Part shown: positions 2,521 to 58,199 of the stretch, piece by piece
Position numbering within the stretch: the stretch's first letter is position 1
Layout of the letters: each line of letters starts with the position of its first letter
Assembly (NCBI GenBank): GCA_020184695.1
Contig: JAANOX010000273.1
Location: 62,001 to 126,000 of the forward strand
Length of the DNA stretch: 64,000 nucleotides
Direction: 5' to 3'
Origin: Histomonas meleagridis 2922-C6/04-290x
Taxonomy: Eukaryota > Protista > Parabasalia
Notes under the pieces: generated by a model
What the model was told of the DNA's origin: nothing
The model's database searches: none
What the model saw: the letters and a program-made list of their open reading frames with translations, nothing else
Made by a program: the position numbers and the translations under genes

Positions 2521-2808
2521 CCCTGATCGGATAATTGATGATATTGTTTTTCTTTCATTCTTAATATCAAATGACAATCTCCCTGCATTTCCAGATATTA
2601 GTGGAAGCATAACCTCATTATCACAACTTTTTAATATATATCGTGATCACCAAGAAATAGGATATCTAACTGAAAACGGTAAGATCATCAGGACTAACCT
2701 TAAAAAGCTTGTTGAAGCATATATTGCAACTAAACCAGCAAGTTTTTTTTCTGTTCAAACCAGACAATTCATTTCCGATTAACCTCTTGAAGTTCTAGCT
2801 AAAGAAAA
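2521..2808 (+). pseudogene. XRN 5'-3' exoribonuclease gene fragment
   Basis: DRIIDDIVFLSFLISNDNLPAFPDI...LFNIY...GYLTENGKI matches the XRN1/2 motif [23 protein letters not shown]...GYLT.NG. Confidence 0.75.
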
Positions 2809-3230
2809 TAACAGAAAAACTTAATACTATAACTTCGACTACAATCCCACAATTATATTATAATAAATCACAATCAGATGTAAAATATTCTACAAAAAGT
2901 CATACTCATAATACAACAAATAATAAGTTAACAGTAAATGGGAATGTACAAGTTACTTCATTAAATGGTTTTCAATTGTCAACAGCAGAAGGTGGTAAAT
3001 GGGATACAAAATTATATGTACCATCTATCATTACATTATAAGAAGATGGTGTTGTAGAAGTTGGTCAATATATTGATATGCATAATAATGCAGATTATGA
3101 TAAAGATAATACATGGAGAATTACTGCAAATACTTTTTCATCAGATTTTGAATCAGAATCTGGTTCATTATAAAGTTTTGGAAGTAATGGCATTATTCAA
3201 TGTGCGACTATAAATAATGTGGATACAACA
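2808..3230 (+). pseudogene. Fragment of the viral fibre gene (second copy)
   Basis: 2808..3104 is nearly identical to the reverse complement of 21462..21758 (TEKLNTIT...GVVEVGQYIDMHNNADYDK), with a premature TAA. Confidence 0.88.
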
Positions 3231-8015: not shown

Positions 8016-8704
8016 AAATTATTCATTTATTATATTGTTGGGCATATAAATATAAATGTAAAGATATTGCAAGAGAAATAGGAGTGAGTAGAAACACAGT
8101 AACATATTATTATATATTATTTAGAAATGCCTGTGATGCATATGTTTTATTTTGAGAAGGTCTTCTTGTCGGTAGCCCTGGTAAAACTGTTCAAATTGAT
8201 GAAACTTTAATGTGCCGAAGAAAATATAATGTTGGACGAGGTTTAAATCGAGTATGGATATTTGGGGGAATTTGCGTGGGAAATAGACCATTCTTTTGTC
8301 TTGTTATACCTGATCGAACAAGAGAAACATTAGAAGAAAAGATTCGTAATCATATATTACCTGAAACAAAAATAATTTTAGATTGCTGGAAGGCGTATGA
8401 CTTTCTTGATGATGACAATGATCACGAGCATGAAACTGTGAATCATTTCTGAAATTTTGTTGATCCTGAAACTAAATCGCACACTCAAATGATAGAAAGA
8501 CTTTGGAGGGAACTTAAAAAAATTAATAAAAGATATGAAGGAATTCAAAAAAACAAAGTCAATGAACATATATCAGAGTTCATGTGGAGATGGAATGTTA
8601 TTCACAATCAGAATCAAATGTTTAGGGCCACCGTTCAATTAATCGCAGACACAAAGTTTACAAAAGTAATTGATTGCGAAAAAGAAGAAAAAGAATTGAA
8701 ATAG
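8016..8704 (+). mobile_element. Merlin / IS1595 (ISXO2-like) transposase, disrupted
   Basis: IAREIGVSRNTV (HTH), TVQIDET, VWIFGG, DCWKAY, HETVNH.NFVDP.T..HTQMIERLW and EFMWR in one frame with two stops. TIRs not identified. Confidence 0.9.
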
Positions 8705-9506: not shown

Positions 9507-12082
9507 TAGGGTGTTCGGATAAATATTAGTATCAGCGTTTGTGCTGAATAATATTTATTAAAATTTCAAATATAAATACATTAAATGTATGTGATATTTT
9601 ATTTTAAATATTGGATCTTATTTTTATTTGGTTCATGAGTTATAGTAAAAATAATGATTCAAAATCCGTTTATTTTTAAAATACGTTAAAAATTTCATTT
9701 TTAAAATGAGTGATCATATTAAACATCTCGTCATATATTGGTACAACAAAAATTTGAAGCCAAATAATATATATAGGGGGTGGAAAAAGTGCGTTCGTCA
9801 GCATTTTTTTTAATGAATAAAAAAGTAAAAGAAATTTTGTTTATTTATTATGATATGTATTCATTTTGAGTTACAATTGAAACTAAAAGTCTGTTCATCC
9901 ATTCATTATATACGGCTCTGAAGGTATCTTTAGGAATATTATACAGTAATGTTTCAACCTTTTGAAAAAGTTGATCTACATTATCAAACTTCTCACCTTC
10001 GAGCATTTTTTTTAGATATCCGAACAGAAAAAAGTCAGAAGGTGCGAGGTCTGGCGAAAACGGGGGTTGCGGAAGTCTTTTAATCCCCAATTAATTCAAT
10101 TTTTCATGAACCAAATGAAACCGGGCGTTATCCATATGCAAAAAATATCCCTTCGTTGAAATTCTCCTTGCCAAATCTCCAAGTACAACTTCAGAAAAAA
10201 AAATTCGATCAAATTTTTGGCCTATCGGGAGCATTGTTATTGATTTGATACCAGTTATAGACCATATAACAGATATCATTACTTTTTTGGAGGCAATAGT
10301 TTGTTTGGGTTTGTATGGTTTTTGCACTTCAGATTCAATCCACATCGAGTTTCTCCCGTTAACAAAATAAATCCAGGTTTTATCTTGCGTCAATATGTGT
10401 CTTAGTCTGTAGTCATTTGAACTAGAAAGGAATTCAAATAATTCAGAAGCAATGGCAGCTCTTTTGGCTTTAATTTCTGGAGTCAACTTATGTGGGATCC
10501 ATTTGAAGTTAACTTTTTTCATCCCTAAAATATCGATCATTATATTTTTCACTGTTTTTGGATCTGCGCCTACATTCTTCGCAATTTTTTTCGTCGATGC
10601 ATATGGATAACTTAATATAAAACTGGTTATTCTTTGATCTAAATCTGATCTTCTTGGTCTCCCTGTTTTTTTCTGTTCGAAAATTGAGAAGGTATGTTCA
10701 TTCATCTTTTTTGTCCATTTCTGAACTGTTCGAAGTGTAATAATATTATCACCATATACAGCACATAATCGCCTATATATGTCTTGATTTTCATTTGATT
10801 CTAACCAAAGGAAATGGACAACAGAACGTAATTCCTCAATTGGAACTGACATTAAAATGATTAAACGTTCTCTTCCAGAGGTATCCTGAAAAAAAGTAGT
10901 TTTACTTCATGCATCATATTTACTTGGAAAAAAGTATCATAATAATAATACAAATATATTTATTATAAATTTTATTTATATAATTTGATTTCATTAATAT
11001 CTAATATAAATCAAAAAAAAAGCTGACCAACTGACTTTTTCCACCCCCTATATAAGAAATGTTGTAAAAACTTTGGTGAAGATAATGTTCACTATAGCAC
11101 AATAACAGATTAGTGTAGAAAATTGTTATTAGGCCAAAACATTCTGGTAAGAAAAACTGGCAGCGGTTTATTTACAGATAATTTTATTGACCTATTAATT
11201 TGTGATCAATTAGAACAAATGCCATTTCACAGTGTCAAAACATTGAGCACAACTTTAAAAATCCCAAAAAGTACAATCCATGATCATCTCCGCAAAATGG
11301 GATTTGTTGTGAAGCATTTAAGGTTCGTTCCTCACACACTTTCTTATGAACAAAAATTACAACATATTGATAAGTCAAAACAACTTTTGGAAATTATTCA
11401 ACAGGCACGTCACCAATCTTGGAAGTTCTTCTTAACAGGTGATGAGAGCTGGTGTTATTTTACAGAAGATTTTGAAATTCAATGGCTCCAGCCTGATCAA
11501 AAACCTTTTACAAGACCTAGAAGAATTATATCAACACCAAAAAGAATGCTAACGGTTTTTTGGTCTCCTTTGACATTTAGAATAGTTGAAATGTTATTTT
11601 ATGGTAATAAATTTAATAGCTCTTACTTTACTGAATCTATTCTAAAAAAAATTGTAAAAACAAATCCTCAGCAAATGGAAGGGCGGCCGAAAAGAAAAGT
11701 TGTGGTGCATATGGACAATGCGACACCTCATCGGTCAAATGAAATCAAGAAGTTTGCCACCAAAAATGGGTTATCTTTATGCTCTCATCCAGCATTTTCG
11801 CCAGATTTAGCACCATCAGACTTTTATCTTTTTGGTAAAGTTAAAAATGAATTAAAAGGTTCAGGGTTTGTCTCAGAAGATGAACTTTTTGAGGCAATTA
11901 AGTCAATATTGGAGAAGATCACAAGAGATGAACTTGAATCCGTCTTTAGAGAATGGGAAAGGAGACTCCAAGCCTGTATTGATAATGAGGGTGGTTACAT
12001 TGAGTAAAGTTTACTTTACTATGAAAATTTTGTTTGTAGCATTTTCTGATATTAAAATACTAAAATTTATCCGGACACCCAA
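9507..12082 (+). mobile_element. Mariner element A (DD34D), interrupted by element B
   Basis: TIRs TAGGGTGTTCGGATAAATATTAGTAT and ATACTAAAATTTATCCGGACACCCAA, with TA TSDs at 9505-06 and 12083-84. The transposase runs 9706..9773 + 11053..12007 in frame (GDESW, DNATPH, FSPDLAPSD) with one TAG at 11111. Confidence 0.92.
9774..11050 (-). mobile_element. Mariner element B, 1277 bp, DD31D spacing
   Basis: TIRs TAGGGGGTGGAAAAAGT and ACTTTTTCCACCCCCTA, with TA TSDs. Transposase 10852..9848 has FKWIPHKL, DNARFH and FSPDLAPSD, with one in-frame TAA. Confidence 0.95.
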
Positions 12083-12861
12083 TACCAATGGCCATATCGT
12101 TACGACCCAATTTAACCAGGAATTCCTTATTATATTCAAATTAACAATTACAAATATCAATTCGAACGTTATGGGTTGAAAAAATATATAAGAACATTTC
12201 ACAGATTTATTCATGGCACAACAGGAGTGTACAGAATCATTGTCCTTGCTATGCAATTATCAATTTTGCTCCTGATTTAATACAATTTTATTATCAAATC
12301 AAAGGTGCACATTCATGTGCTCAATATAACACAATTAAAATTTAATTTTTACGGAAGAACAAGTTCAAGCAAAAATTGTTAGGTGCTATAATAAAAACAA
12401 GTATCAAATAGCACCAACTATTATTTTCTATAGTATTTTTCAGTGGATCGAAACTAAAACCCCCCCAGGCCAACGAAAAAATATAATAGATTACAAAAAT
12501 GTTCAAAATTTAGTATATGAACTTAATCGTCAATATCGAGAAATACCAGATTATCGGAAGACGATAGATGGGCATAGGTCATTATTTTTGATAATTACAA
12601 TTGAAAATAATCATACATTTTCGAGTTTTGTATCAGATTATATGTTGCAAAAAGTACCTGAATCAAGTATTGCTGGAATCGATGGTACATTCAAAGTTCC
12701 TCCATAAAACTTTTATTGATTGCTTCAGTAAAATAACAATATTCTATGTTATATGAAATTGAACTTTCAAGTGAAGGTCCTATTTTTTTATTCCGTTTTT
12801 AAATTTATTCCACAAACCCCACTTAATTAAATATTATGGAAAATATTTTTCATTTTCATCA

Positions 12862-14487
12862 ATGTATTATAATAATACGCAATTCAAAAATGAAGATCAT
12901 AATCAAGGTAATATTGGGATCTATTTTGATCGTCTTAAAGATTTAATTGCTAAAAATGATGGTACTCGTTCTTTTATTTTAAGAACTGAAGATTGTCATG
13001 ATCAAAATGCACCATTTAATCAATCTCAAGAAACTAGATTAAGAATTACACATGGTGATCATATGGTTTCACAAATAACTGAAGGTTTTATTAATTTTAA
13101 ACTTAGAATAACTGTACAATTATCAAAAGCTATTTCATCTGGTAATTTGTCAGATCCTGAGAATTTAGTTAAAATATTTATAGGTTTTAAGAGTTCTAAT
13201 CAATTATTAGATCAATGACAAATTATGTCTAATAATATATCTACTGGTTATCAACAAAATGAATGTTGTCGTGAAGGTTATTGTTATTCTACAATTAAAC
13301 CCTATGCTGAAAAGAAAACTAGAAAATATACACATATTTTATATGAAAATGTTTCAGAATATTCTCAATCTGTTTTTGGTACTTATGTTGATTTAAATAC
13401 AATTGCAGATGGAAATAAACATGATATCGAATTTGAAATGAATCTTCCATTTGAAGATATATTAGCTTTACAAGCATTTGATTTATATCCAAATAGATTA
13501 GTTGGTGATATTGAATTAAAGTTTTATGTTAAACAAAATGGTTTAATTTGGTGTCAAGTAGATCCACGTAAAATTAAAGAAGTTAAAGAATTTTTAGAAG
13601 ATTCTACTATTAATGCTACATTTAATAATTTACCTTTATTTACTCATGGTTTTACTCAAATAGGTAATTCTGCTAATATAACTACTACATTTAAATGTGA
13701 TACTGAAACTAATCATACTATTGATACTGCATCTGAGAATGTTTCTCTATATTGTACAGGTTTAACTGTACTTTCATGTAAATCTAATATGTTTGGATTT
13801 GGAGTTAAAGAAGAAACTTTAAATCAAATAGCTCAAATACTTCAACAACCTGGAGGTTTATTAATTCCTTCACAACAATTAGATTATAATGCATTTGCTT
13901 TAGCTGCTACAGAATCTGGTATACAATCTACTATTAATATGCCTTTATTTGATGTCACAACTATTACAGTTGTATTTCCAAAAAATGCTAATGATTATAC
14001 TTGTTTCGATAATCCTATTTATAATAATGTACAATTAACTATTGCAGGTCAAAATTATCCTGATGAACCTATTTCTACTTTAGGTGCTAGATTTTTACAA
14101 TATCAATTAGTTGCTTCTGATTTAGATGGTGGTATACAATGTACTAAAGAATTCGAAGATTCTTTAACTATGGATAGGAATGCTTCAAATGGTACAAGAT
14201 ATAATAATACATTAAGTGATGCTACTTCTTTTATGCTTAATATACAATGTGAACGTTCGCGTGGTGGTTACGTATTTGATGGTTTAGATTCTAATGGACA
14301 AAATATACCAATACAAATTAGGGGACAGCCTATTTATACACTAGCTAACGATACATATTATAATGTAGATGATGCTGGAAATCATCCGCCTCCACCACAA
14401 TAATTTATATGTCGTGATACTTATTTCACATTAGATTTACACAACGGTTTGAAATATCATTCTAATGGTACCCCTGATGGTTATTAA
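12862..14487 (+). pseudogene. Double-jelly-roll major capsid protein (~540 codons, two in-frame stops)
   Basis: ORFs 12862..13218 and 13225..14403 plus a tail to 14487 share one frame. Beta-rich, with capsid-like motifs EMNLPFEDIL...YPNRLVGDIELKFYV, INMPLFDVTTITVVF and NVQLTIAGQNYP. Confidence 0.7.
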
Positions 14488-14631
14488 ATAAAAATTAATT
14501 ATATATAAAATAATCATCATATGATCATATACTAAATAAACTTGAAATGATTTAAAAACATCATAATAGTCTTAGATAAATCATTATATTTTTATAGTTT
14601 ATATTGGGGTACACTAAATTCATCTGAACAA

Positions 14632-14856
14632 ATGGAAAGAGAGTATCTTGTCACAAGCATCCTCGACCACTACTTCCGCATGGAAGGAACAAACGAAGTC
14701 CTTTACTTCGTATTGTTATGGGAGGATGGCTCAATAACAGCGGAACCAGCAAATTGCTTAACAAATTGCGATGATCTTTTAGGCGATTACATATAGAAGC
14801 TGGTAAGCCAACGCAAATTCGATCAAGTACGAGGAATCCTACAATTCATTCAATAA
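14632..14856 (+). pseudogene. Stand-alone chromodomain protein (TAG at 14794)
   Basis: MEREYLVTSILDHYF...LYFVLLWEDGSITAEPANCLTNCDDLLGDY matches EYxVExILDH...YLVKW...TWEPxxNLxNC; too short for the ORF track. Confidence 0.7.
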
Positions 14857-15513
14857 ACAACCTCAAACAACATTTTTTTTCATTGTTGTGTCTAAAAAAT
14901 GGATTTAATCTATGCATCTTCATTTTCATCCGGAAGATACCGATCAATAAACTAAACAATCATATAGTACTCCTTAGTAAACTCTCCAATTTCACACCCC
15001 ACTCGTACTCTAGACAACATTTGAATAGTGATGTGATGTAAACCATTCAATTTATTTCAATGGTTTATGAAAAAAGTAATGTTTGATTAATACGATAGAT
15101 GAACGTTAAAGGCAAAAAATGCCAAATTGACTTTAAGATTCAAAGTTACGATCATAGTTCTTGTCAAAATATACGATCATTAAATTGAATAGCGATAATG
15201 TTGTTTTCTGAGAGTTTTGATCTCAATGACTTTTTGAACTGAATAAAGTATGTATTATCAAATATTTTTTGTATAAATGATTTACTGATCGTTTCCCATG
15301 ATCTCAAAAATCTATTTATATCTTAAGTTAGGACATAACTGTAAAAATTGAATCTATCGTTAATTCAGAAGTGAAAAAATACGTTCAAAATCAATTCAAT
15401 TTTTTATCATTGATCCCCTGTCCATAAAAATCACATAACAAATCATTGTTCATTTATTCATTCAAATGTGTCACTTTTCGAACGATAGAAAATATTAACG
15501 ACATTATTTTTAT

Positions 15514-15906
15514 TTATAGAACATTTTGAGCTTGATCATTTTGATTTTGAGGCATTATTGAGTTTGCATAATTTTGTAAAACATTTAATTTATTTACATA
15601 AGCATTATAATTGTTAAAATCATTATTAAATATTTGATTTAATAATTCCATTTTAGATATTTGATAAGCTTGATCTGATTGTTCAGGTGTTATATATTGT
15701 AAAGGATTTTTAATGATGAGATGATATTTTTCATCTATAAATTTATAAATTTGTTTTCTTAATAAATTATGATATTTATTATATACAGTTACAGTTAATG
15801 TTATTACATTTTTATTTTTAACAATAGAAAACGAAGGTTTAATATTTATAGCAGTAAAATCACAATCTTTAAATTCTTGTGCAAAGCATGTATAAAGAGA
15901 TTCCAT
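15514..15906 (-). CDS. Hypothetical viral protein, 130 aa
   Basis: Intact ATG ORF inside the viral cluster. Confidence 0.55.
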   Translation of the reverse strand: MESLYTCFAQEFKDCDFTAINIKPSFSIVKNKNVITLTVTVYNKYHNLLRKQIYKFIDEKYHLIIKNPLQYITPEQSDQAYQISKMELLNQIFNNDFNNYNAYVNKLNVLQNYANSIMPQNQNDQAQNVL

Positions 15907-15945
15907 TAATAATAATGAAATGATTTTATAAAATTATTTTATTTT

Positions 15946-16748
15946 ATGGAAAACGATATTAATATTGATGTCATAGATAATATGATTGATTATTGTTTAT
16001 ATAAAAATAAATTTAAATTAAATGAAGAATTAATAAGTGAAATTCATCCAGAAGTAAATTTACCTTATAATTCTTTAAATATAGCAGTAGGTAGACAAAG
16101 AAGTGGGAAAACTCAATGTATAATTAGAGAAATTATTAAAATTAGTAATATTAGTCCTAGAACTCATTAATTTTAATTTATATTAATAAAAATGGATTAG
16201 AAAATGATCCTACATTTGAATCATTAAAACCTTTAATAAAGATTCCAATATTATATGTAGCTGAAAATCAAGCAGAAGATATAGTTAAAGATATATTAAA
16301 ATGGAAACAATTTTATAATGAAATTAAAAATAATCATTGGGAAAATAAAATAGTAGATAATCAAATATCTGAATTATTTGAAAAATTATATAATAATAAT
16401 TTTAATAATTTAACTTTACATACTATAATATTTTTTGAAGATTGTGCTAATAGTCCTTCATTTAAAAAACCTACTAGTTATTTTAATCAATTATTTACTA
16501 AATTAGCTCATATTCAATGTTCTGTATTTTTCGCTGTACAATTTTGGAAATCTTTACCTGCTGAAGTTAAAGCTAATGTAAGTACTATATTTATATTTCC
16601 TAATTTCTCTAAACAACAATTAAGTTATATGTTAGCTCAAATACCATTGTCTTATACTAAAGATCAAATTTATTCAGTTTATCAAAAATTAACTGGTCAT
16701 CAAAAAATGATTATTGACGTTAATAAACAAAAAATAAAAATTGAATAA
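15946..16748 (+). pseudogene. A32/FtsK-HerA-type genome packaging ATPase (1-nt frameshift near 16168)
   Basis: Walker A AVGRQRSGKT; after the shift, Walker B TIIFFEDCAN and LAHIQCSVFFAVQFWKSLP.EVKANV, the motif pattern of A32 ATPases. Confidence 0.85.
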
Positions 16749-16844
16749 AAAATGATAAATTAAAATTCATTTTTTTTTAATATCATATAAAGAAAGTGGT
16801 ATAGATAATGAAATAGCTACTTATCTCAATGTTCTGGGGTCGAT

Positions 16845-17222
16845 ATGAATGCTGCTATTGATAAATTAAAACAATGGCGAATTAAACAAAACATTAAAAC
16901 TATGAATGACCTCAATAGACAAATAAACATATGGCGTAATCAAAAATCATCTGGTATAGATGAGAATACTTTATGGGACGATATATTGTCATATTTACAA
17001 AATATTGGACATCCATTCTTTTATGAATTATCATTATTTCATCCAGAGGTAGAAAAGGAGGACGCTATAGAAGAACAAACAGAAAATGAAGAAGATCATT
17101 TTTCATCAATGCAACCAACAGTAACTATCGAGGACATTAACCCAATTTTGTCTAACGAAATTCCACCATTGGGATATGAAAAAGTGGTTGGAAAATATCA
17201 AAAAAGAAGTAACAAATACTAA
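16845..17222 (+). CDS. Hypothetical viral protein, 125 aa
   Basis: ATG ORF co-oriented and tightly packed in the viral cluster. Confidence 0.55.
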   Translation: MNAAIDKLKQWRIKQNIKTMNDLNRQINIWRNQKSSGIDENTLWDDILSYLQNIGHPFFYELSLFHPEVEKEDAIEEQTENEEDHFSSMQPTVTIEDINPILSNEIPPLGYEKVVGKYQKRSNKY

Positions 17223-18255
17223 AAATTCACCACCACCAATAAGACCTCATAAATATCAAATTAGAACTCCTGATGGTAAAATGTATGATTTTATAGAAGA
17301 TAAATCAAAATATAAATATACTGGAGGAAGTAATGTTATATTGGATGAAAATATGGATACATTAGCACATCTTATTCTTGATTTAAAGAAAGATGTTAAA
17401 AAAATTAGAGAGCTTCAAACAATAGAAGGAGCAAGAGCATTAGTTGAAAAACATAATAAAGATAAAAAGGATCCAAGATATCATTGGACTGCAATTGAAG
17501 AAGATATAAATAAGGATGGTATTCCAGATGTTATAGTTGCAGATCAACATAAAAGAGCAAAATTTGTAAATGGATGGACAGTTAAACAACATGACCCCTA
17601 TGAAAGACAATATATATAATTTTTACAACAAAGATATGGTAGTCCACAAAATAGAAAACTTTTGAGAGCAAAAGGTCGACATATAGAGGATTTCGATGAA
17701 TTTATGGATACATATATAAGAAAAGTTTCATATGATGATAATAAGCCATTTGATGATCCTAGGGCAGAACCTACCCCAGAAGGTAGACAAATTATGGATA
17801 CTGTTGATAAATTTAATTTAAAGTATTATCAAGATACAGGTGTTAGAGATGTTTATAAAACACACAAGCCAAGAAGGAGAACAGCAAATCAAGTGTTTAC
17901 TAGTTATGTTATTAAGCCAATTTATAATGATTATCTTAAAGATTATCAAAAGAATAATGCTAATGATGAACAACTTCCTGGAAAGTTAGCTCTGATTAAA
18001 GGAATGTTTCCAATACTTATTGTATCTGCTAAATTTTATAATGACATTATAAAAACAAGAATGAATAAGATATTGGCAGGTCAAAATATTAAAGATGAGA
18101 AAACAGCTAAGGAATATATTAGAGAAGATACAGGAGAAAATTATTTAACAAGCGCTTCAAAGCAAGCAGTTTCTGAAATTTTACAAGATAAGAATAAATA
18201 TGAAGCTGTTAAAACAGCATTATATACATATATTGACAGTAATCGTGGTTTCTAA
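17176..18255 (+). pseudogene. Hypothetical viral protein (~359 codons, TAA at 17617) with a DxNxDG motif
   Basis: The two listed ORFs share a frame and are separated by one stop; contains EEDINKDGIPDV. Confidence 0.6.
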
Positions 18256-18286
18256 ATAAAAAAAAATTTAAAAATCATTATTTTTT

Positions 18287-18808
18287 ATGATTAAAATAAG
18301 TGATTTCCCACCTTATGTAGGGAAGAATAATACTAAACATAATAGTTCTAGTGCTAATTGTAAAGTTATTATAAATAATAACAATAGTGAAACACCAGCA
18401 CATTATCCTGAAGTTAATGAAGAAACACCAAAAATAATTACAAGGAAAACTGAACTTAATACTGATAATGCAAGTGTTTTATATAAACATATAGCTTCAA
18501 CATTTAGTGCGATATTAAAGACGAATAATGTGAAATTAATAGCAAATTTAATTGATAATAGTGGAAAAATTATTATTAATGCTAATGATTTAGTACAAGC
18601 TATAAGTTTAATTTTAGAAATTGATTTTAATCAAGTTAGATTAAGTTATGAAGATCCTGAACCTGGTTGTTTAAAACATGTAAATCCAATTAAAAAAGTT
18701 CATTCAATTAAGATTAATATATATGATTTTAATTCTCAATATAATAAAGAATATAACACATTAATAAATGAATTTAATATATCATTAGAAAAAGTATTTA
18801 TTTATTAA
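18287..18808 (+). CDS. Hypothetical viral protein, 173 aa
   Basis: Intact ATG ORF preceded by TCATTA; its 3' end overlaps the convergent integrase stop. Confidence 0.6.
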   Translation: MIKISDFPPYVGKNNTKHNSSSANCKVIINNNNSETPAHYPEVNEETPKIITRKTELNTDNASVLYKHIASTFSAILKTNNVKLIANLIDNSGKIIINANDLVQAISLILEIDFNQVRLSYEDPEPGCLKHVNPIKKVHSIKINIYDFNSQYNKEYNTLINEFNISLEKVFIY

Positions 18809-20139
18809 GATTAATGAGATTAGGCACAGGATTTAATAAATATCTTGGTACTGACATTTTTATTCCTTTTTCATTATAAATATTATATTTACCTTTTTCG
18901 AAATTATCTACTATAAAAATATCTGATAATATTTTTGATCTCTTATTTAGTTGATCTGTATTATAAACTGATACTGTTGTACCAGGAGGTAAATAAAATC
19001 CTTCTTGATTTATAATTTTATCATTTAATTTATGTAACTCTAAACCAAAAGATTTTCTTTGATTAAAAGCTTCTAATGGTGAAATTATTTTGTGATTTAA
19101 TTGACTTAATGTTTTATGTTATGAATTATTATAATTACCAACAATTTTCTTCATATGATATAGGTCTATTTCTTTTAAACCCATATTATCAGCCATATCT
19201 CTAATAGTTCTGCAAATTCTATTTATTATAGCTAAAGAAGTATGAATAGGATAAGATTTATCTTCTAAAATTATTCTTTTTACTGGAATTATTTTTACAC
19301 CAGATAAATGTGCTATTATATATTGTGAAGGTTCTGATAAAAATGTTTTTTTCGGAATCACAATGTATAATTTTAGGATTAAATCCTATATTATATAAAA
19401 TAAATAAAGTATTAGCTATAGATTCTATTGATTTCTTTGTAGTTATTTTATCATTTATTTTTGTATTAGTATAGGAATAAAATAAAAATCTAGACCTAAC
19501 TTCAACTGCTAATAAATAACAATATTTTGTCTCTGTTTTAGTGATTCCATCATAATCAGAAAAAAATAAATCCATTTGATATTCACCATTATACGTTCCC
19601 AATTTTATTATCAATTATTTCGATATCACATTAATATTCTTTTGATTCTTTACAATATTCATTAAATTTGATAGGCTTTTTTTCAGCTTCAAAAACTTCG
19701 TGTGCAAAATCTCATTCAATTTTTTGATAGTCTTTTCAATATTATAATATGCATAATGCTCTGGGATTGTTTTTCCTCCAATTTTTCTATTGATAGGTGT
19801 AATTTTTTCATTTTCGATAAAAATTTTAATAAAATTATATTCAAATTGTTCATAATTGTTAAAATGTTTATTTTTATATTGTTTATCTGTTATTCTTTCT
19901 AAGTTGTCATCTATAAAATAATTAACTAAATTGTTGTATGTTTCGACTAATGGCTTTGTACCAGTATTAAATTCAGGTGTAAATTTAATCTCCCTATTAT
20001 ATTTTTCATTCAAAAGATTAATAAAATATTGAAGACTCAAATTACCTTTTAATTGTGAATTTTGATTATTTAATTCATTTTTAACTATTGTTTCGAATGC
20101 ATCTTGCATTTCTCTCTTTCTTTTATAAATTGGATACAT
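18798..20139 (-). pseudogene. Retroviral-type (rve) integrase of the viral element
   Basis: GEYQMDL, YLLAVEVRSRF, IIHCDSE, NRICRTIRD, YNNS*HKTL and an SH3-like tail (PGTTVSV...VPRYLL); two stops and one frameshift. Confidence 0.8.
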
Positions 20140-20161
20140 ATATAAAATAAATATATTTTTT

Positions 20162-21875
20162 TTATTCTTTAAATACACTTAATAAATGTTCATCTATTAT
20201 ACCTGTTACTTTACCAACTATTGAATTGAATATTTTAGTAGATATTACTAAATCATCTGATAATTTATTACCATCAAATAATACTACATCACCAATTTCA
20301 TAATCTGTAGTATTATTTACTCTAAAATAAAAATCTCAATGTGAAGCGAAATCAATAGTATTCTGTAAAATTTCTACTTCTCTTTTAATAACATTACCTA
20401 TTGAAGCTTTATATCCAGTTTCATGTTTAGCTACACAAATACCTATATATTCTTTATAAGTACCTGTAGTTTTAACTGATGGTATACAATCAGTTGATGA
20501 AGTATTTGTGTCATATTTACCTTCATTGGTTAAAGCATAAACATTACCTGTTAAAAATACTGGTGAACCAATTTGAAATTGTGTTAAATCTTCTGAAACA
20601 GGAGCATTATGGATAATAGTCGTATTTAATTGTTCAATATATCCATCACCTTCGATTGTACTAAATGTAGTTTGAATGAAATATGTTGAACCACTTATAT
20701 CATCAAAAGTATTATCACTTAGTTTTTTCTGTGTTATTGCCTCAAAACATAATCTTCCATATTTTGGATCACTAGAAGGAAAATTTGGATAAATTCTTCA
20801 TAATAAATTATACGTATTTCCTGATTCTTCTATTATACTTTGAAAAGTGTTGTAACAAGTTATCTCTGTGACATTTAAACTATTACAATCGAATACACCT
20901 TTTTTTTGAATAAAACTGAAACCATATACTCCTTGATTTGGTTTTATCACTAAATTATCATCAGAAGCTTGTATTCTCCAATTATAATCAGCATCATACC
21001 CATTTTTATCATGCATATCTATATAAGGACCTGTTTCTAAAACACCATCATTTTTAATAACTACAATTGAGGGTACACTAATATCTAAATTTGAATATGA
21101 AGGAGATGAATTTAAAGCAAAACCATTAATTGAAGTACATGTTAAATCACTAAAATTATGTGTATGATTTAGTAGTGCATATTCTGCATGTGTATGAATT
21201 TCAGGTGGGAATGATGTTGGTTTATTCTGGATATCACTATAATTTGGTTTGTTAATACATAAATTTTCTACAGGTCTCTATGAAAAAAACTTTTATTTCA
21301 GGAGGATGAGTATCATCTTCTCCTTGAGGAATACTAAATATTATTTTATTTTCTTCTTGTGAAATAGCTGCTAGTTGCCATTTATCATTAGATATAGTAA
21401 TCTTTTTAAAATTAACATAATCAAAAGTATGTATATGCTCTGATGGCGGAAATGTTTCAGGTTTATCATAATCTGCATTATTATGCATATCAATATATTG
21501 ACCAACTTCTACAACACCATCATCTTTTAATGTAATAATAGATGGTACATATAATTTTGTATCCCATTTACCACCTTCTGCAGTTGATAATTGAAAACCA
21601 TTTAATGAAGTAACTTGTACATTTCCATTTACTGTTAAATCATTATTTATTGTACTATGTGTATGACTTTTTGTAGAATATTTTTCATCTGATTGTGATT
21701 TATTATAATATAATTGAGGTAATGTAATCGAAGTTATAGTATTAAGTTTTTCTGTTATTTGATCATTTGTAGAATAATTTTCTAAAACTTTTTGTAAGTC
21801 ATCTTGGTCAATAATTTCAGGAGCAGCAACAACATTAGTTTTTATACCTTTCACAACATTCTCAATACTAAACAT
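20162..21875 (-). pseudogene. Fibre / receptor-binding protein with phage tail-fibre-like modules
   Basis: KPETFPPSEHIHT, IQNKPTSFPPEIHTH and two DGVxExGxYIDMH modules; one frameshift near 21255 and two TGA stops. Confidence 0.7.
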
Positions 21876-21895
21876 TGATAAAAAATGATTTTTAT

Positions 21896-22237
21896 TTAAT
21901 AAATTAATAATAATTCTAACATAAAATATTCTGGTTCAATTTCTTTACCATTCATTTCTTTAAACCATATTTTAAAATTTGGTTTTCTACTTTTATATTC
22001 ATATTTCTTATATTTAGTCCTGTTTTCATTCGTATAAATACAAAAATAATTATCATAATGGTCACGTTCAATAAAATCAGCATGCATTGAAACATCAGAA
22101 ACTAAATATTCCTTAAATTTACACTTGCATTGTTGTACTACTATATATCTAGAATTTTGAGAATCCACAAATTCGAGAGGAAAACGGTTTTCTTTTTGTG
22201 AAGTACAAAAATATGTTTTAGTCGCAGGTTTAAGCAT
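21896..22237 (-). CDS. Small beta-rich protein, candidate single-jelly-roll minor capsid (penton)
   Basis: 113 aa of alternating beta pattern ending FKIWFKEMNGKEIEPEYFMLELLLIY, like penton C-termini; adjacent to the fibre gene. Confidence 0.5.
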   Translation of the reverse strand: MLKPATKTYFCTSQKENRFPLEFVDSQNSRYIVVQQCKCKFKEYLVSDVSMHADFIERDHYDNYFCIYTNENRTKYKKYEYKSRKPNFKIWFKEMNGKEIEPEYFMLELLLIY

Positions 22238-22539
22238 TTATAAAAATAAAGTTTGCCAAAAGATCAAACAATAACCGTCGCTTTTTGACTACTAACCTCC
22301 TACCAAACAAGATATTTGTCCGGCCAAAGATGAATTGAATAAAATAAATGACCGACCAAACATAACCGAACACAATTCGTGTTGGTTATGCGAGTTTTTT
22401 GATAGGTTTACGTGAAAAGTGGCGCTAAAAGTGCTATCGTACCTATCAAAAAGTTTCGCGTTCTCTCAAAATTGAATGTGCATTCAAATTTTCAGACAAA
22501 TTGTATGGCTCACAAAAATCATTTTGATATTTTGATTTT

Positions 22540-22686
22540 TGTAGCGAGCGGAGCGAGCACACTCGGGGGATCTGAGGCCTCCGGAGGTGTCAGACCTGGG
22601 GTCCCCCCAATGAAAATTTTAGGTCGGAACGAATCCCAGGGACCCTAGGGGCCCCGCCCCCGGCCAGGTATACCTACCAGTTTACT
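22540..22686. repeat. GC-rich palindromic terminus, candidate right end of the viral element
   Basis: Palindromes CCTCCGGAGG and AGGTATACCT, the near-inverted pair CCTGGGGTCCC / GGGACCCTAGG, then an abrupt return to AT-rich DNA after CAGTTTACT. Confidence 0.55.
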
Positions 22687-23084
22687 TATTATGGCGGTTT
22701 TTTATGTGGACATTTTTTGCTGTAAGGGATGTAACTCATAATTTCATCCACTTTTTCAATAACCTGAGTATTCATTTTTTTTACAAGGATAACTTTTTCA
22801 ATTAAATTCTAAAAATTAAAAATATAAATATTTAGCTCTATAATTGTGTTAGAAGGTTTTTTAATGTAGTCTGATCAGTATTACTTGTTGTGCATATAAT
22901 TTTATATTAAAAATTAATTCTGTAAAGAGGATCGTTGATTGACTCCTATTCATTAAAATTTTGCAATGTTTTAAGTTAGATTTCTATTCAAAGACAAAAC
23001 ACAATATTTCACCAAGTTAAAAGCCAAAAAACTTATACAAAGATAATAACATTTTTGAATAAAAAAATTCGATACATTTTTTTA

Positions 23085-23895: not shown

Positions 23896-25470
23896 TCATT
23901 TCCTTCTTGGTCTAAATCCGCCCTTTCTATGCAGTTGTTGATACATTATGATTTCTTCTTCTGCAGTTCTTTGTTTCTTCTTCTTTTTCTCCACTGGCTT
24001 TATCATATCCGGTTTGCTTCTGCATTCCTCAGGCACCAAATCCGCGTACTTATTATTGTATTCTTCTTGTTTCTTCCTCAAGTTCTTTAGCTCGGGCATC
24101 ACTGGCAATCTCACGAGCCCAAATGAATTACCGAGTGCTATGAAATCGACATCTTTTTTCATTAATATTAGTTTCAACCTATGTTCGCCATAAGCTCTTG
24201 CGTATGATACCATAGCCCTAATTGATTTTTGATAAAAGTCTTTGTTTTCTTTGGCATGTTCTCTTATCTTATTTAGAATTTCTTCTGCATTTTCTGGAAT
24301 TGGAATATTCTCTTCTTCCATTGGTACCTTTTCTGCAATCATATAATCGACATAACCTTTGCGTTCCTCATGATCTCGAAGAAACAAAATCGCATTACCT
24401 TTGTTACCTATACGTGCAGTACGTCCAACTCTATGTATAAACATATTCGGATCTTGTGGCGCATCAAACTGAATAATCCAATCAATGTCTGGAATATCAA
24501 TGCCACGTGCTGCAATATCAGTGGCAAGTAATAATGAGCCTTCATTTTCACGAAAATCAGAAAGTGATTTTTCGCGATCACTTTGCTTCATTTGGCCATA
24601 GAGCGAAATAACATTACGCTCAGTACCAAAAAGAAGTTGAAGAACTTCATGAAAATATTCAACAATGGCACCTGTTAGCAAGAAAATGATACATTTCTTT
24701 CCTAGGGCTGTAGTGTTAAGGAATAAAACAAGTTGTGTGAGCTTATAATTATCATCAACAATGGCATAATAGTTGACAAGTTCACTGGGAGTGGCACCTT
24801 CGCTTTTGATGACAAGGAAAATGGGATTACGCATGCCGGTGTAACAGATGCTTTTAAGGGAATCTGTTAATGTGGCAGAAAATAATCCAGTACGACGTTG
24901 CTTAGGAAGGGCTTGGAAAATAGCGGTGAGATGAACTTCCATTCCCATTTTGAGAATTTGATCGGCTTCATCAATAATAAATAATTCAAGTCCTTTAAAC
25001 GTTTTAGGTGGAACTTCAGTAATAAATTCATGAAGTTTGCCGGGCGTAGCAACAATTACATTTGGTTGATTTGCATTGTAATGTTCAAGATCTTCTGATA
25101 AGGGGCATCCTCCAATAAAGAGTTGAGGATTGAGATATGGATGATATTGTATAAATGATTGACAAACACTAAATACTTGTTGGGCTAATTCGCGTGTAGG
25201 TAAAAGGATTAAAACTGATAAATCCTTTGGTGATGTTTCTGATTTTTTCTTTAAATATTCAATAGCAGGAACTAGGAATGCAAGCGTTTTTCCTGATCCT
25301 GTAGTTGCTTCTGCAGCTACATCTTTATGATTCATAAGATGAGGAATAACATTCCTTTGAACAGGAGTCATCGTAGGAAAACCAAGTTTTTGAAGTGATT
25401 CTATTGTTTCTGGTGATATTGAGTTTGGTACAATGCTATTGAGATCTTCCCATGGGCCTGCATTGGTCAT
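23896..25470 (-). CDS. DDX55: DEAD-box RNA helicase, DDX55/Spb4 family
   Basis: MTPVQ, TTGSGKT, PTRELA, DEAD, SAT and HRVGRTARIG motifs, plus the Spb4-type tail SYARAY.EH.L. Confidence 0.88.
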   Translation of the reverse strand: MTNAGPWEDLNSIVPNSISPETIESLQKLGFPTMTPVQRNVIPHLMNHKDVAAEATTGSGKTLAFLVPAIEYLKKKSETSPKDLSVLILLPTRELAQQVFSVCQSFIQYHPYLNPQLFIGGCPLSEDLEHYNANQPNVIVATPGKLHEFITEVPPKTFKGLELFIIDEADQILKMGMEVHLTAIFQALPKQRRTGLFSATLTDSLKSICYTGMRNPIFLVIKSEGATPSELVNYYAIVDDNYKLTQLVLFLNTTALGKKCIIFLLTGAIVEYFHEVLQLLFGTERNVISLYGQMKQSDREKSLSDFRENEGSLLLATDIAARGIDIPDIDWIIQFDAPQDPNMFIHRVGRTARIGNKGNAILFLRDHEERKGYVDYMIAEKVPMEEENIPIPENAEEILNKIREHAKENKDFYQKSIRAMVSYARAYGEHRLKLILMKKDVDFIALGNSFGLVRLPVMPELKNLRKKQEEYNNKYADLVPEECRSKPDMIKPVEKKKKKQRTAEEEIIMYQQLHRKGGFRPRRK

Positions 25471-25562
25471 TTGGATTGTGGTCAAGCAGAGTCATTTGAA
25501 AAAGTAGAAAAAATTCAGATATGTGATGTGAAATGATACAATTAACGTACATAGGATTTTGG

Positions 25563-29838: not shown

Positions 29839-30255
29839 ATGGCTCGTACTAAACAAACAGCTCGTAAATCTACAGGTGGTAAGACACCACGCAAATCACT
29901 TGGTGCTAAGGCAGCACGTAAGTCAACACCAGTTGTTGATTCACAAGGAGCAAAGAAACAACATCGTTTTAGACCAGGTACAGTTGCACTTCGAGAAATT
30001 CGTAAATATCAAAAGAGCACAGATCTATTAATTCGTAAGCTTCCATTCCAACGTCTTGTTCGAGAAATTGCGTCCGGTTTTAGAGGAGATCTTCGTTTTC
30101 AATCATCAGCTATTGCAGCACTTCAAGAAGCATCAGAAGCATATCTTGTAGGACTTTTTGAAGATACGAATCTTTGTGCTATTCATGCTAACCGTGTTAC
30201 TATTATGGAACGTGATGTTCAACTTGCACAACGAATTCGTGGAGAACGCAATTAA
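29839..30255 (+). CDS. H3: Histone H3, trichomonad type
   Basis: [22 protein letters not shown]...[17 protein letters not shown]; full histone fold. Confidence 0.99.
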
Positions 30256-37420: not shown

Positions 37421-37950
37421 AATATGAGTTGAAATTATCGTTACTGACGGTTACTAAGGGCGCCTCAAATTTCATTCAAAAAATGGCGGCAAAACAAAAA
37501 AGTAATTTGATGTCGTTTTATGTCTATGTTTATGAATTATGAAAAAGTTTAGAATATATTTCAAAATAAATGGGAGTAAAATGGCAATTTAGTATAAAGA
37601 AGTTTTCCCTCCATTAAATGAATTTCATTTTATTGAATGGCTCGTACTAAACAAACAGCTCGTAAATCTACAGGTGGTAAGACACCACGTAAATCACTTG
37701 GTGCTAAGGCAGCACGTAAGTCAACACCAGTTGTTGATTCACAAGGAGCAAAGAAACAACATCGTTTTCGACCAGGTACAGTTGCACTTCGAGAAATTCG
37801 TAAATATCAAAAGAGCACAGATCTACTTTTTGAAGATACGAATCTTTGTGCTATTCATGCTAACCGTGTTACTATTATGGAACGTGATGTTCAACTTGCA
37901 CAACGAATTCGTGGAGAACGCAATTAAACTTAAATAAATATTTATACATG
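37421..37950 (+). repeat. Duplicate of the H3 locus (29623..~30282), including the promoter
   Basis: About 215 nt of upstream DNA, the CDS and the 3' flank are nearly identical apart from a 126-nt deletion. Confidence 0.95.
37637..37927 (+). CDS. Histone H3 copy with a 42-codon in-frame deletion (96 aa); may be a pseudogene
   Basis: STDL|LFEDTN junction at 37825/37826; lacks the equivalent of 30028..30153. Confidence 0.75.
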
Positions 37951-55646: not shown

Positions 55647-56044
55647 ATAGATTTCTTTTTAATTTTAAAATTATTTGTAATGTATTTAATACATTTCAGA
55701 TTTTAGAATATAAGAACAGTAGACAAATTTTTATACAGATATAATAATTTTTTAATAATTTTATTTGAATTTAGTCACTTTCCATTTAAATTTGTATGTA
55801 CGATACAATACACAAACGGTCATCTAAGCAAAAACTGGACTCCCCAATTAACCACATCTAAACCATTATATACGAGTATTGTTGAAGAAATGTTTAAAAT
55901 ATTTTTATTTACTGTTTAATTTTATGATTTTTTTTTGTGAGTATCGTTCATTCGTATCGAAACAAATTTTGATGGATTTGTAACCGCAAAATATATTCAA
56001 AAAGTCATTTTTTCTTCTTTGTCGAGAGCCTCCGATAATGAATA

Positions 56045-57492
56045 CCCATAATCGTCTCAGATCCGGACAAACCGTCTTTTTGGATTTCAATGCAACGTCG
56101 ATCATTCTCCATTCAATTATTTTAATAACAAATTGACTTAAATCGTTTTATAGAAGATAATGAACACTGTTCCTTGTATCATAAGAATTGTAAAACGCTA
56201 TCACCGTACTTATAAAATAAATGAAATTCAAGAAATATTAGAATACTTATCTAAAGAAGATCTCCCATATGGTGCATTATCAAAAATTTCCAATGACACA
56301 GGAATTCCAAAACATACACTGAGCGACTGGAGAAAACACAGGAGATCTCCAGGTGGCCAGAACTGGATTCCTAATCCATCATCCCAACCTCCAAAATATG
56401 TACTTTCACCACAAATAGAACAATCTATCTATGACTACATAAATGATAATATTTTGAGTGTTGGGTTACCCACATGATGTTGCATTAAATGCATATTCTT
56501 CATCTGATATCAGGTGGAGAAATTTTCTGCATCTAATTCATGGGTAGATGAATTTTTGGAAACTCATGGTTTATCCATTCTCAAACCTCATGTTGAAAGA
56601 AGAACTACTGTAAATGAGGAGAGTGTTGAGTACTTTAGACAAAGAATTGAAGAGTTACCAAACTTTTATCCGCCATCTCATGTAGGGAATTTTGATGAAA
56701 CAAGCTGGTGCCTACACTTATCTCCTCATAAAGTTTTAGTAGAAAAAGGTTCTGAAACTGTGAAGATTACCCAACAAGAAGGCGAAAAACAACGACTGAC
56801 AACATTTGGGTCGATCACGTGTGATGGAAATAAGTTGCCGTTATGGATATTAGCTAAAGGCAAGACAAGCATGTGTCTGAATAAATTAAGTCATCACCAA
56901 GAAGTGATTATAAAGTATTCAGAAGATGGTTGGACAACGGAAAAGGTAATGATTGATTACCTTCATTGGTCGCACCAACAATTGAATGGTTTACTTGGAT
57001 GCCTCATCTTAGACGTTTACCCAAGTCACAGAACTCAAGCCGTTCAGGATATAGCAGCCGAACTCGATATTGAGTTGCTTTATGTACCTGCTGGAGGGAC
57101 ATCATTATACCAACCTTTATATAGAAGGATTTTCGGCGAGCTCAAATCAAGAGCTAGACACCAGTTCACCATCATGAACTCCCCCCATGGCCCTCTTACT
57201 TCCATTAACGAAGCAGGTATCAAAAATTTTAGTGAAATGTTGGAATGAGATCGATTCCATAAATATTCTCGAAGCATGGGATATGTTATAAAAAACAGAT
57301 CCCCGACCCATTATAATACAACAGGGATCAAGAAAACTCAAGTAAATGGGTTGTTTAGTGAAAGAAAATCAAAAAATAGAAAATCATAACTTTAACGTCT
57401 TTTATTGAATTAAATAAATTATTGAAATCCAATAACTATACGTTAAAATTGATCCTTGAAAAGAGTTTGTCCGGATCTGAGACGATTATGGG
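56045..57492 (+). mobile_element. pogo-like DNA transposon, 1448 bp, inactivated
   Basis: Perfect 28-bp TIRs (CCCATAATCGTCTCAGATCCGGACAAAC) and TA TSDs. Transposase has an HTH, ASNSW, NFDET, LILDVYPSH and QPLY (third D changed to Y), with frameshifts. Confidence 0.95.
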
Positions 57493-58199
57493 TAAATTGT
57501 TTTAAGAATTATCCTATTTATAGAACAAATAAATCATGAAAAAATGTAAAGACAGATTTTTGAATTTTTGCTCTGGTCTATAGTAATTGAATATCTTGTA
57601 TAACTTAATAACGATATGCAAACAGATAGGATGACAATCGGATTTAAAAGGAAAACGATGATGAACGGGATACGGTTCAATAAACTACACAATTTTTTGA
57701 TGTACGTCGAATGACTATTTTATATTAAATTTCATATTTTATGAGCTCATCGAAAAAAATTTTCTGAGAGACAGAGCGATATGAGTGAACCAAAGAGAAG
57801 CAAATCTTTCGAATAAAGTCGGAATAATTCTTCCTAAAAAAACATCTCATTCAAGCAAAAGTTTTACAACTTGATATGTTCCTGCTTCATTTCATATATC
57901 AAATTTAATTCGCATGATGGTGAGAATGAATTGTGATGTTAAACGATTTTGTTGTAAACACGCTAAACCTATCGTATAATAAATTGTGACCTTTCGAATT
58001 TTATTTGTATAGTGATGACAGTATTTTGAATATATCGTTTCAACTTTATCTGTTAATCAAAAAAAATTCTATGTGTTTCATCAAAAAGTCGAGGCTTTGG
58101 AGTATATCCTCATAATGAATTTCAGCCCGGGGAAGGAAAACAAAATTGGTAATATCTATAAAAGGAAAAATGATGAAATAAACGAAAAAAATCAGATAA

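Follow-up and report, generated by a model that had tools for sequence, protein, structure and literature searches.

A stretch of 64,000 nucleotides from the parabasalid Histomonas meleagridis 2922-C6/04-290x (assembly GCA_020184695.1, contig JAANOX010000273.1, positions 62,001 to 126,000 of the forward strand; hereafter the window, whose first letter is position 1) carries a virus-like element between approximately 12,785 and 22,690. Eleven open reading frames (ORFs) and pseudogenes are arranged there in two mostly convergent blocks, which include genes for a major capsid protein (MCP), a penton-like protein, an A32-type ATPase, an rve integrase and a fibre, together with several unknowns. 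Both the convergent arrangement and these gene assignments had been proposed in a first-pass annotation of the locus, and our analysis confirms them. The window consists of AT-rich parabasalid DNA in which host genes flank the element, indicating that the latter is integrated in a metamonad genome. The DDX55 helicase encoded at 23,896-25,491 has its best named matches in Tritrichomonas foetus (64%) and Trichomonas vaginalis (50%), in agreement with the original proposal of an endogenous virus of the Polinton or Polinton-like type, equipped with morphogenesis genes and residing in a parabasalid.

Capsid, packaging and integration genes

Pfam recognized almost none of the element's ORFs among the 21 ORFs of the window, and the MCP, penton and ATPase pieces were all without a match; PHROGs and PDB sequence searches did not recognize these three either. 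The identities of the element's genes therefore rest on relatives and on predicted folds.

The MCP gene (12862-14487, forward strand) comprises 541 codons with two in-frame stops, which were read as X. It has 486 homologs at E <=0.001, and the best 120 of these are 72-77% identical to it and nearly all full length; intact proteins of 539 amino acids (aa) match it along its whole length with 72-74% identity. A search with one intact homolog, P0014, yielded 609 further cluster representatives. The fold was computed for P0014, which is 74% identical to the window's own broken MCP and stands in for it. The resulting model, based on an alignment of 79 sequences, had a predicted local distance difference test score (pLDDT) of 92.7 and matched the MCPs of PBCV-1, an iridovirus, Sputnik and mavirus (Foldseek E 1.6e-13 to 6e-10, with PBCV-1 at 1.6e-13), as well as viral MCP models. 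The identity to the matched capsids in the structural alignments is 6-13%, which makes this MCP highly divergent. Through its close homolog, the protein encoded at 12862-14487 is predicted to be a double jelly roll, as had been anticipated. The MCP phylogeny that had been proposed as a check grouped the window MCP with gut sequences: in a quick maximum-likelihood tree, midpoint-rooted and limited to 46 of about 270 capsid homologs, none of them a published reference, it falls in a clade of 10 rows (support 99) that it shares with human-gut homologs, including the P0014 capsid of locus L001 and those of L007 and L018 (the related loci, numbered with an L, are described below).

A predicted single-jelly-roll penton, or minor capsid protein, is encoded by an intact ORF of 113 aa at 21896-22237 on the reverse strand. 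Its model is a beta-sandwich (pLDDT 88) whose top 7 matches among 48,161 chains all come from double-jelly-roll virus capsid entries, namely EhV-201, PBCV-1 (twice), the mavirus penton, Sputnik, an aviadenovirus and an iridovirus. Their Z scores of 6.2-8.1 are moderate, lying below or near the level that the search tool calls common; the mavirus penton aligned with Z 6.9 and a root-mean-square deviation of 3.0 over 105 residues. When the model was compared with viral models by Foldseek, nothing was found at E <=0.001, the best match having a value of 1.4e-3 and an adintovirus protein ranking third. Because the structural ranking is consistent and the gene lies beside that of the MCP in relatives, the 113-aa protein is likely a minimal penton, so that the structural check suggested for this gene bears out the initial call.

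The packaging ATPase of the A32 type is a pseudogene on the forward strand (15946-16748) with a frameshift near 16,170. Walker A and Walker B motifs are present, and the protein is 62% identical to the ATPase of L001 across two frames, its homologs ranging from 45 to 79%; a Pox_A32 match was obtained for 8 of 29 aligned members of the family. The rve-type integrase (18798-20142, reverse strand) is interrupted by stops at 19,615-19,617 and 19,119-19,121 and by a frameshift near 19,290-19,350. It matches Pfam rve with an E value of 0.036 and is 31-38% identical to the L001 integrase, and its homolog in L027 matches rve at E 0.001, along with weak matches to foamy-virus integrases. At what we take to be the third catalytic position, the integrases of L001 (9817-10974) and L027 (4537-6126) have Asp and that of the window (19,122-19,385) has Asn, where rve integrases usually have Glu. 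Finally, a fibre- or spike-like pseudogene occupies 20162-21875 on the reverse strand, with a frame break near 21,250-21,340 and stops at 20,798-20,800 and 20,336-20,338. Its C-terminal 160 aa are 52% identical to proteins of L001 and L007, and these intact homologs match phage tail families (PHROG 14, E 6.8e-9).

Relatives in gut metagenomes

We identified 54 related loci, 47 of them in metagenomes and 7 inside bacterial records of metagenome-assembled genomes. The search for intact copies recommended in the first-pass annotation thus succeeded in gut metagenomes but not in IMG/VR, where scans with the capsid and the ATPase retrieved no relative. A single identical intact capsid, P0014, is found on 438 contigs of gut metagenomes, and close variants of it on hundreds more; the loci linked to it are L001, L002, L024, L042, L048 and L050. 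These relatives apparently represent an abundant undescribed Polinton-type virus or endogenous family. A pogo-type DDE_1 transposon present in L001 and L013 suggests that they lie in a eukaryotic host genome, and the host would be a gut parabasalid such as Dientamoeba. Loci L048-L054 are located inside three GTDB records labelled Firmicutes, Gastranaerophilales and Lachnospiraceae, and are likely mis-binned contigs.

The relatives encode two genes of which the window holds no copy. In L001 (16.8 kb), L027, L042 and L052, a protein-primed DNA polymerase (pPolB; Pfam DNA_pol_B_2) stands beside the same core genes. It was detected in four of the six loci of at least 9 kb and in 6 of the 54 overall, most loci being too short to tell, and no trace of a polymerase was found in the 64-kb window. 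The other gene, often duplicated in tandem, codes for small basic proteins whose N terminus carries a WG-x-W-x-K-I-K-K-G motif (WG-motif proteins), and it is present in 48 of the 54 loci (for instance L050:478-705, L027:8056-8322, L052:1141-1410 and L018:1479-2042). Of the 40 loci that extend far enough upstream of the MCP gene, 39 have it at most 1 kb from that gene and one has it elsewhere; it is absent from the window. These proteins may be comparable to adenovirus protein VI with its membrane-lytic amphipathic helix.

No Pfam protease was detected in the 21 window ORFs or in 47 proteins of the relatives, whose contigs are incomplete; several ORFs are also unassigned. The gut relatives appear to form an undescribed, protease-less sub-lineage with intact genes that is common in human gut metagenomes. 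We found no description of the gut members or of the whole element in the literature, although supplements that we did not see or subscription journals could hold one. Accessory genes of the relatives encode a deoxynucleotide monophosphate kinase, an HNH endonuclease and a DUF5906 protein (L003:3838-4464, L027:11616-12197 and L007:6222-7634).

Ends, decay and affinities of the element

The left break of the element and a conserved promoter-like region upstream of the MCP gene lie at 12783-12861, where there is no terminal repeat. DNA similarity to the relatives begins at 12,783-12,793, so that the left boundary sits within a region upstream of the MCP gene that the relatives conserve. A single-copy contig (12,145-12,815) crosses this junction without differences, and sequencing depth is about 100-fold higher beyond it. 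At the other extremity, a non-coding right end (22240-22690), whose exact limit is not fixed, contains a palindrome-rich block of 60% GC at 22,540-22,690 (fold z -2.7); high depth persists to about 22,717 and then drops to the level of the flank. Being GC-rich, palindrome-rich, non-coding and multi-copy, this block is likely the sole surviving arm of a terminal repeat. It has no partner elsewhere in the 64-kb window and no convincing match in the 54 related loci. Paired terminal inverted repeats (TIRs) are not present, the best matches between left and right being AT-rich chance pieces of 62-73%. A search for a target-site duplication, which is a feature of Polintons, gave none, with the left end lost and the right end not placed to the base. 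Because there is neither a TIR pair nor a polymerase, the coordinates of the element mark a fragment.

Where three key genes had initially been described as hidden by stops or frameshifts, five prove to be broken, with 7 stops, 3 clear frameshifts and 1 probable one. The 7 stops in 7.8 kb correspond to about 1.6% neutral change (95% interval 0.6-3.3%), an estimate that uses a rough mutation spectrum and no clock. The earlier suggestion of a recent integration holds only in a relative sense, given some ten lesions and this level of decay: the copy is young relative to the divergence of its family from the gut kin, but clearly dead.

The element also belongs to a multi-copy family. Summed contig depth over the MCP, ATPase and penton genes and parts of the integrase and fibre genes exceeds the flanking level about 100- to 400-fold in two DNA runs, a quantity that differs from copy number; at one MCP site, a mean depth per contig of about 11,500, versus about 490 for single-copy contigs, sets a floor of about 20 copies. 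Both runs may be the source of the window itself and are not an independent check. Contigs over the MCP region from two further runs, tentatively taken to be RNA, are 3.4% (27/804) and 5.1% (61/1,187) off the window and may be multi-copy DNA.

The affinities of the capsid point to a group that is already known. The accessible part of Bellas et al. (2023; PMC10120064) describes a Metamonada (MMN) group of MCPs that come from five parabasalids, from Streblomastix and from some amoebozoans, with 2,531 MCP hits counted in T. foetus, 61 and 72 in Histomonas, and others in T. vaginalis and Streblomastix. The T. foetus MCPs of its Table S3 match PBCV-1 by structure and were modelled as double jelly rolls; three of six test motifs of the window MCP occur exactly in them, and by eye we noted colinear similarity with T. 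foetus gene_7069 (536 aa) and gene_93267, the latter being a reference for the MMPC_40 cluster rows. The double-jelly-roll MCP, the parabasalid host and the multi-copy integration are further likenesses, and from its sequence the window capsid likely belongs to this group. The window copy differs in being truncated and broken, and the accessible part of that study catalogues capsids, not the 113-aa penton, the gene set or the gut members of the present sub-lineage. The possibility of an undescribed lineage, raised in the first-pass annotation, was thus overstated, since the motifs are shared with known T. foetus MCPs, although the accessible text of a 2026 preprint leaves the Metamonada group unplaced for want of genomes (bioRxiv 10.64898/2026.06.19.733378), and no whole-element description was found.

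According to the part of Sullivan et al. (2025; PMC12289875) that we could access, T. vaginalis Mavericks form three classes, in which deleted, TIR-less and nested copies are frequent. They resemble our element in their parabasalid host, in their integrase, A32 ATPase, capsid-like and phage-tail-like genes, and in the existence of deleted or TIR-less copies. They differ in gene order and in their class marker families: KilA-N, DUF4106, DUF4107, DUF4108 and DUF3839 had no match in the window ORFs or in 47 proteins of the relatives. Membership in classes 1-3, as far as these are set out there, is ruled out by the absent marker families and the gene order. With Polintons proper (Polintoviricetes, as defined in the accessible part of PMC11161782), the family shares the pPolB of the relatives, the rve integrase, the packaging ATPase, the MCP and the minor capsid protein. 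It departs from them in the absence of a detected Ulp1-type protease, in the highly divergent MCP and in the very small penton. A further difference is the Asp found instead of Glu in the L001 and L027 integrases, at the presumed third catalytic position. The window copy itself retains the integrase, ATPase and penton and lacks the polymerase and paired TIRs. Polintons across parabasalids are confirmed in the accessible part of the egovirus preprint (10.1101/2024.03.23.586382), and the main texts of one T. foetus and one Histomonas genome paper do not contain the words Maverick or Polinton (PMC13735942, PMC8529796).

Altogether, the locus is very probably a dead copy, likely truncated on its left side, of a multi-copy endogenous virus of Polinton type, likely from the Metamonada capsid group, in transposon-rich parabasalid DNA. 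It is likely a new member of a capsid group already reported rather than the new compact virus first envisaged, a description at odds with the polymerase and WG-motif gene missing by comparison with relatives and with the single recognizable end. Judging from the relatives and from established Polinton biology, an undamaged parent would have a linear DNA genome of about 15-20 kb bounded by terminal inverted repeats, and would use a protein-primed polymerase of its own for replication and its rve integrase for insertion; the A32 ATPase would package this DNA into an icosahedral capsid built of MCP trimers, whose vertices would bear small pentons and fibres. Once inserted, the window copy likely lost its left arm next to a cluster of mariner and Mutator-like relics; the terminal repeat and the small amphipathic-peptide (WG-motif) gene would have gone with that arm, and probably the polymerase as well. 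The copy has decayed since, and it is incapable of forming particles or of moving autonomously.

Truncation is the simplest reading because the polymerase and the WG-motif gene are missing, the right end is unpaired and similarity stops at 12,783-12,793. An alternative that we consider improbable is a naturally compact satellite, a 10-kb capsid and integrase unit that would borrow its polymerase from autonomous Polintons of the same genome. The absence of a polymerase throughout 64 kb, the inward orientation of all remaining genes from both ends and the multi-copy state of the whole span would fit such a unit, and the accessible part of PMC12289875 reports class 3 Mavericks of T. vaginalis that include 10-20 kb forms, with a polymerase annotated in 74%. 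Yet the left end has no terminal repeat, which integrase-driven insertion would need, and its boundary falls inside the upstream region conserved in relatives; the near-universal WG-motif gene is missing too, and the closest long relatives possess a polymerase. Equally improbable is the wider picture of a host family of capsid-complete satellites of about 10 kb, multiplied to dozens or hundreds of copies with a borrowed polymerase, with one of the smallest known pentons and no maturation protease, whose autonomous kin would circulate in gut parabasalids as active viruses. Less credible still is a mosaic, made either by the joining of two partial copies in the low-copy segment at 14.5-15.3 kb or by the collapse of repeats into an artificial consensus; some of the lesions would then be errors of assembly. 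Between the MCP gene and the ATPase block, depth indeed drops about 20- to 60-fold, and of the contigs one leaves out 14,494-15,029 and none covers the whole element; moreover, false stops are reported in such assemblies in the accessible part of PMC10120064. Against a mosaic, single-copy contigs without differences exist both at the left junction and inside the low-copy segment (14,658-14,942), no gene is present twice, and at the fibre stop 20,336-20,338 run X1, possibly the window's source, agrees with the window's letter at single-copy depth.

Several observations weigh against a truncated member of the Metamonada group. Two long loci, L003 and L050, have no polymerase within their contigs, and the probable loss of the polymerase is deduced from relatives that are 72-77% identical at the capsid. 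Gene order is fluid among relatives (L001, L027 and L052 differ), so arguments from adjacency are not binding. Pfam DUF4106, the T. vaginalis MCP family, matched none of 79 aligned MCPs, and membership in the Metamonada group relies on motifs and inspection, not on clustering. As to decay, the window's letter at the second MCP stop occurs in no contig at that site, and this stop could be a mistake or a variant lost from the contigs; the accessible text of Bellas et al. (2023; PMC10120064) cautions that assembly can create artefactual stops in elements of this kind.

The locus itself is a fossil of a known kind, and its value lies in pointing to its relatives. The Metamonada capsid can now be linked with a predicted penton of 113 aa and with a gene set that includes a polymerase but no detected protease. 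In the literature that we examined, we found no virion of a parabasalid Polinton, and the intact gut members would make such a virion testable.

Unassigned ORFs and neighbouring DNA

A forward ORF of 54 aa (14632-14796) lies within the GC-richer, low-copy segment at about 14,494-15,029. Homologs of it were found in one relative, L036, and it had no Pfam match; with a profile of three sequences, chromodomains made up five of seven PDB matches (E 0.045-1.5). The chromodomain assignment made at the outset is weak. It is accessory, since it lies in the low-copy segment that one contig skips.

Among the four unknown ORFs, three are conserved in relatives, one of them weakly, and the fourth is without homolog. 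An intact conserved ORF of about 130 aa (15514-15906, reverse strand), divergent from the ATPase gene, is 36-40% identical to an ORF adjoining the ATPase in L001, L003, L018 and L042. A family protein with a DxNxDG motif is encoded at 17125-18255 (forward strand), with an in-frame stop at 17,617-17,619; it shows 25% identity over about 270 aa to proteins of L001, L007 and L018 (E 1e-18 to 1e-22), in a family whose members have 410-520 aa, and is likely a structural protein. An intact forward ORF of about 173 aa (18287-18808) is matched weakly by proteins of L027 (pairwise E 6e-4) and L030 (0.006). The ESM Atlas provided no lead for this ORF (matches below 0.9) or for a 472-aa protein of the DxNxDG family. 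The forward ORF of 125 aa at 16845-17222, for which no homolog was found among the 54 related loci, may be the beginning of the following gene, separated from it by a frameshift.

A nest of transposons occupies 9,770-12,710, next to the left break. It comprises a mariner element whose inverted repeats are 50 bp long (9,770-11,054), another mariner ORF (11,114-12,007) and a putative Mutator-like fragment at 12,339-12,707, which was assigned by a motif and which Pfam did not confirm. In addition, a remnant resembling IS1595/Merlin lies at 8,156-8,701, and 56,043-57,494 contains a pogo-like element. An isolated, inverted piece of a fibre gene from another copy of the element, 95% identical, is located at 2,806-3,131, where it adjoins two other fragments, one Xrn1-like and one from an unrelated rve gene. 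The host-side ORFs include DUF3447-ankyrin and BspA repeats, and two histone H3-like copies were noted at 29,839-30,252 and 37,637-37,924, the second without about 42 internal codons.

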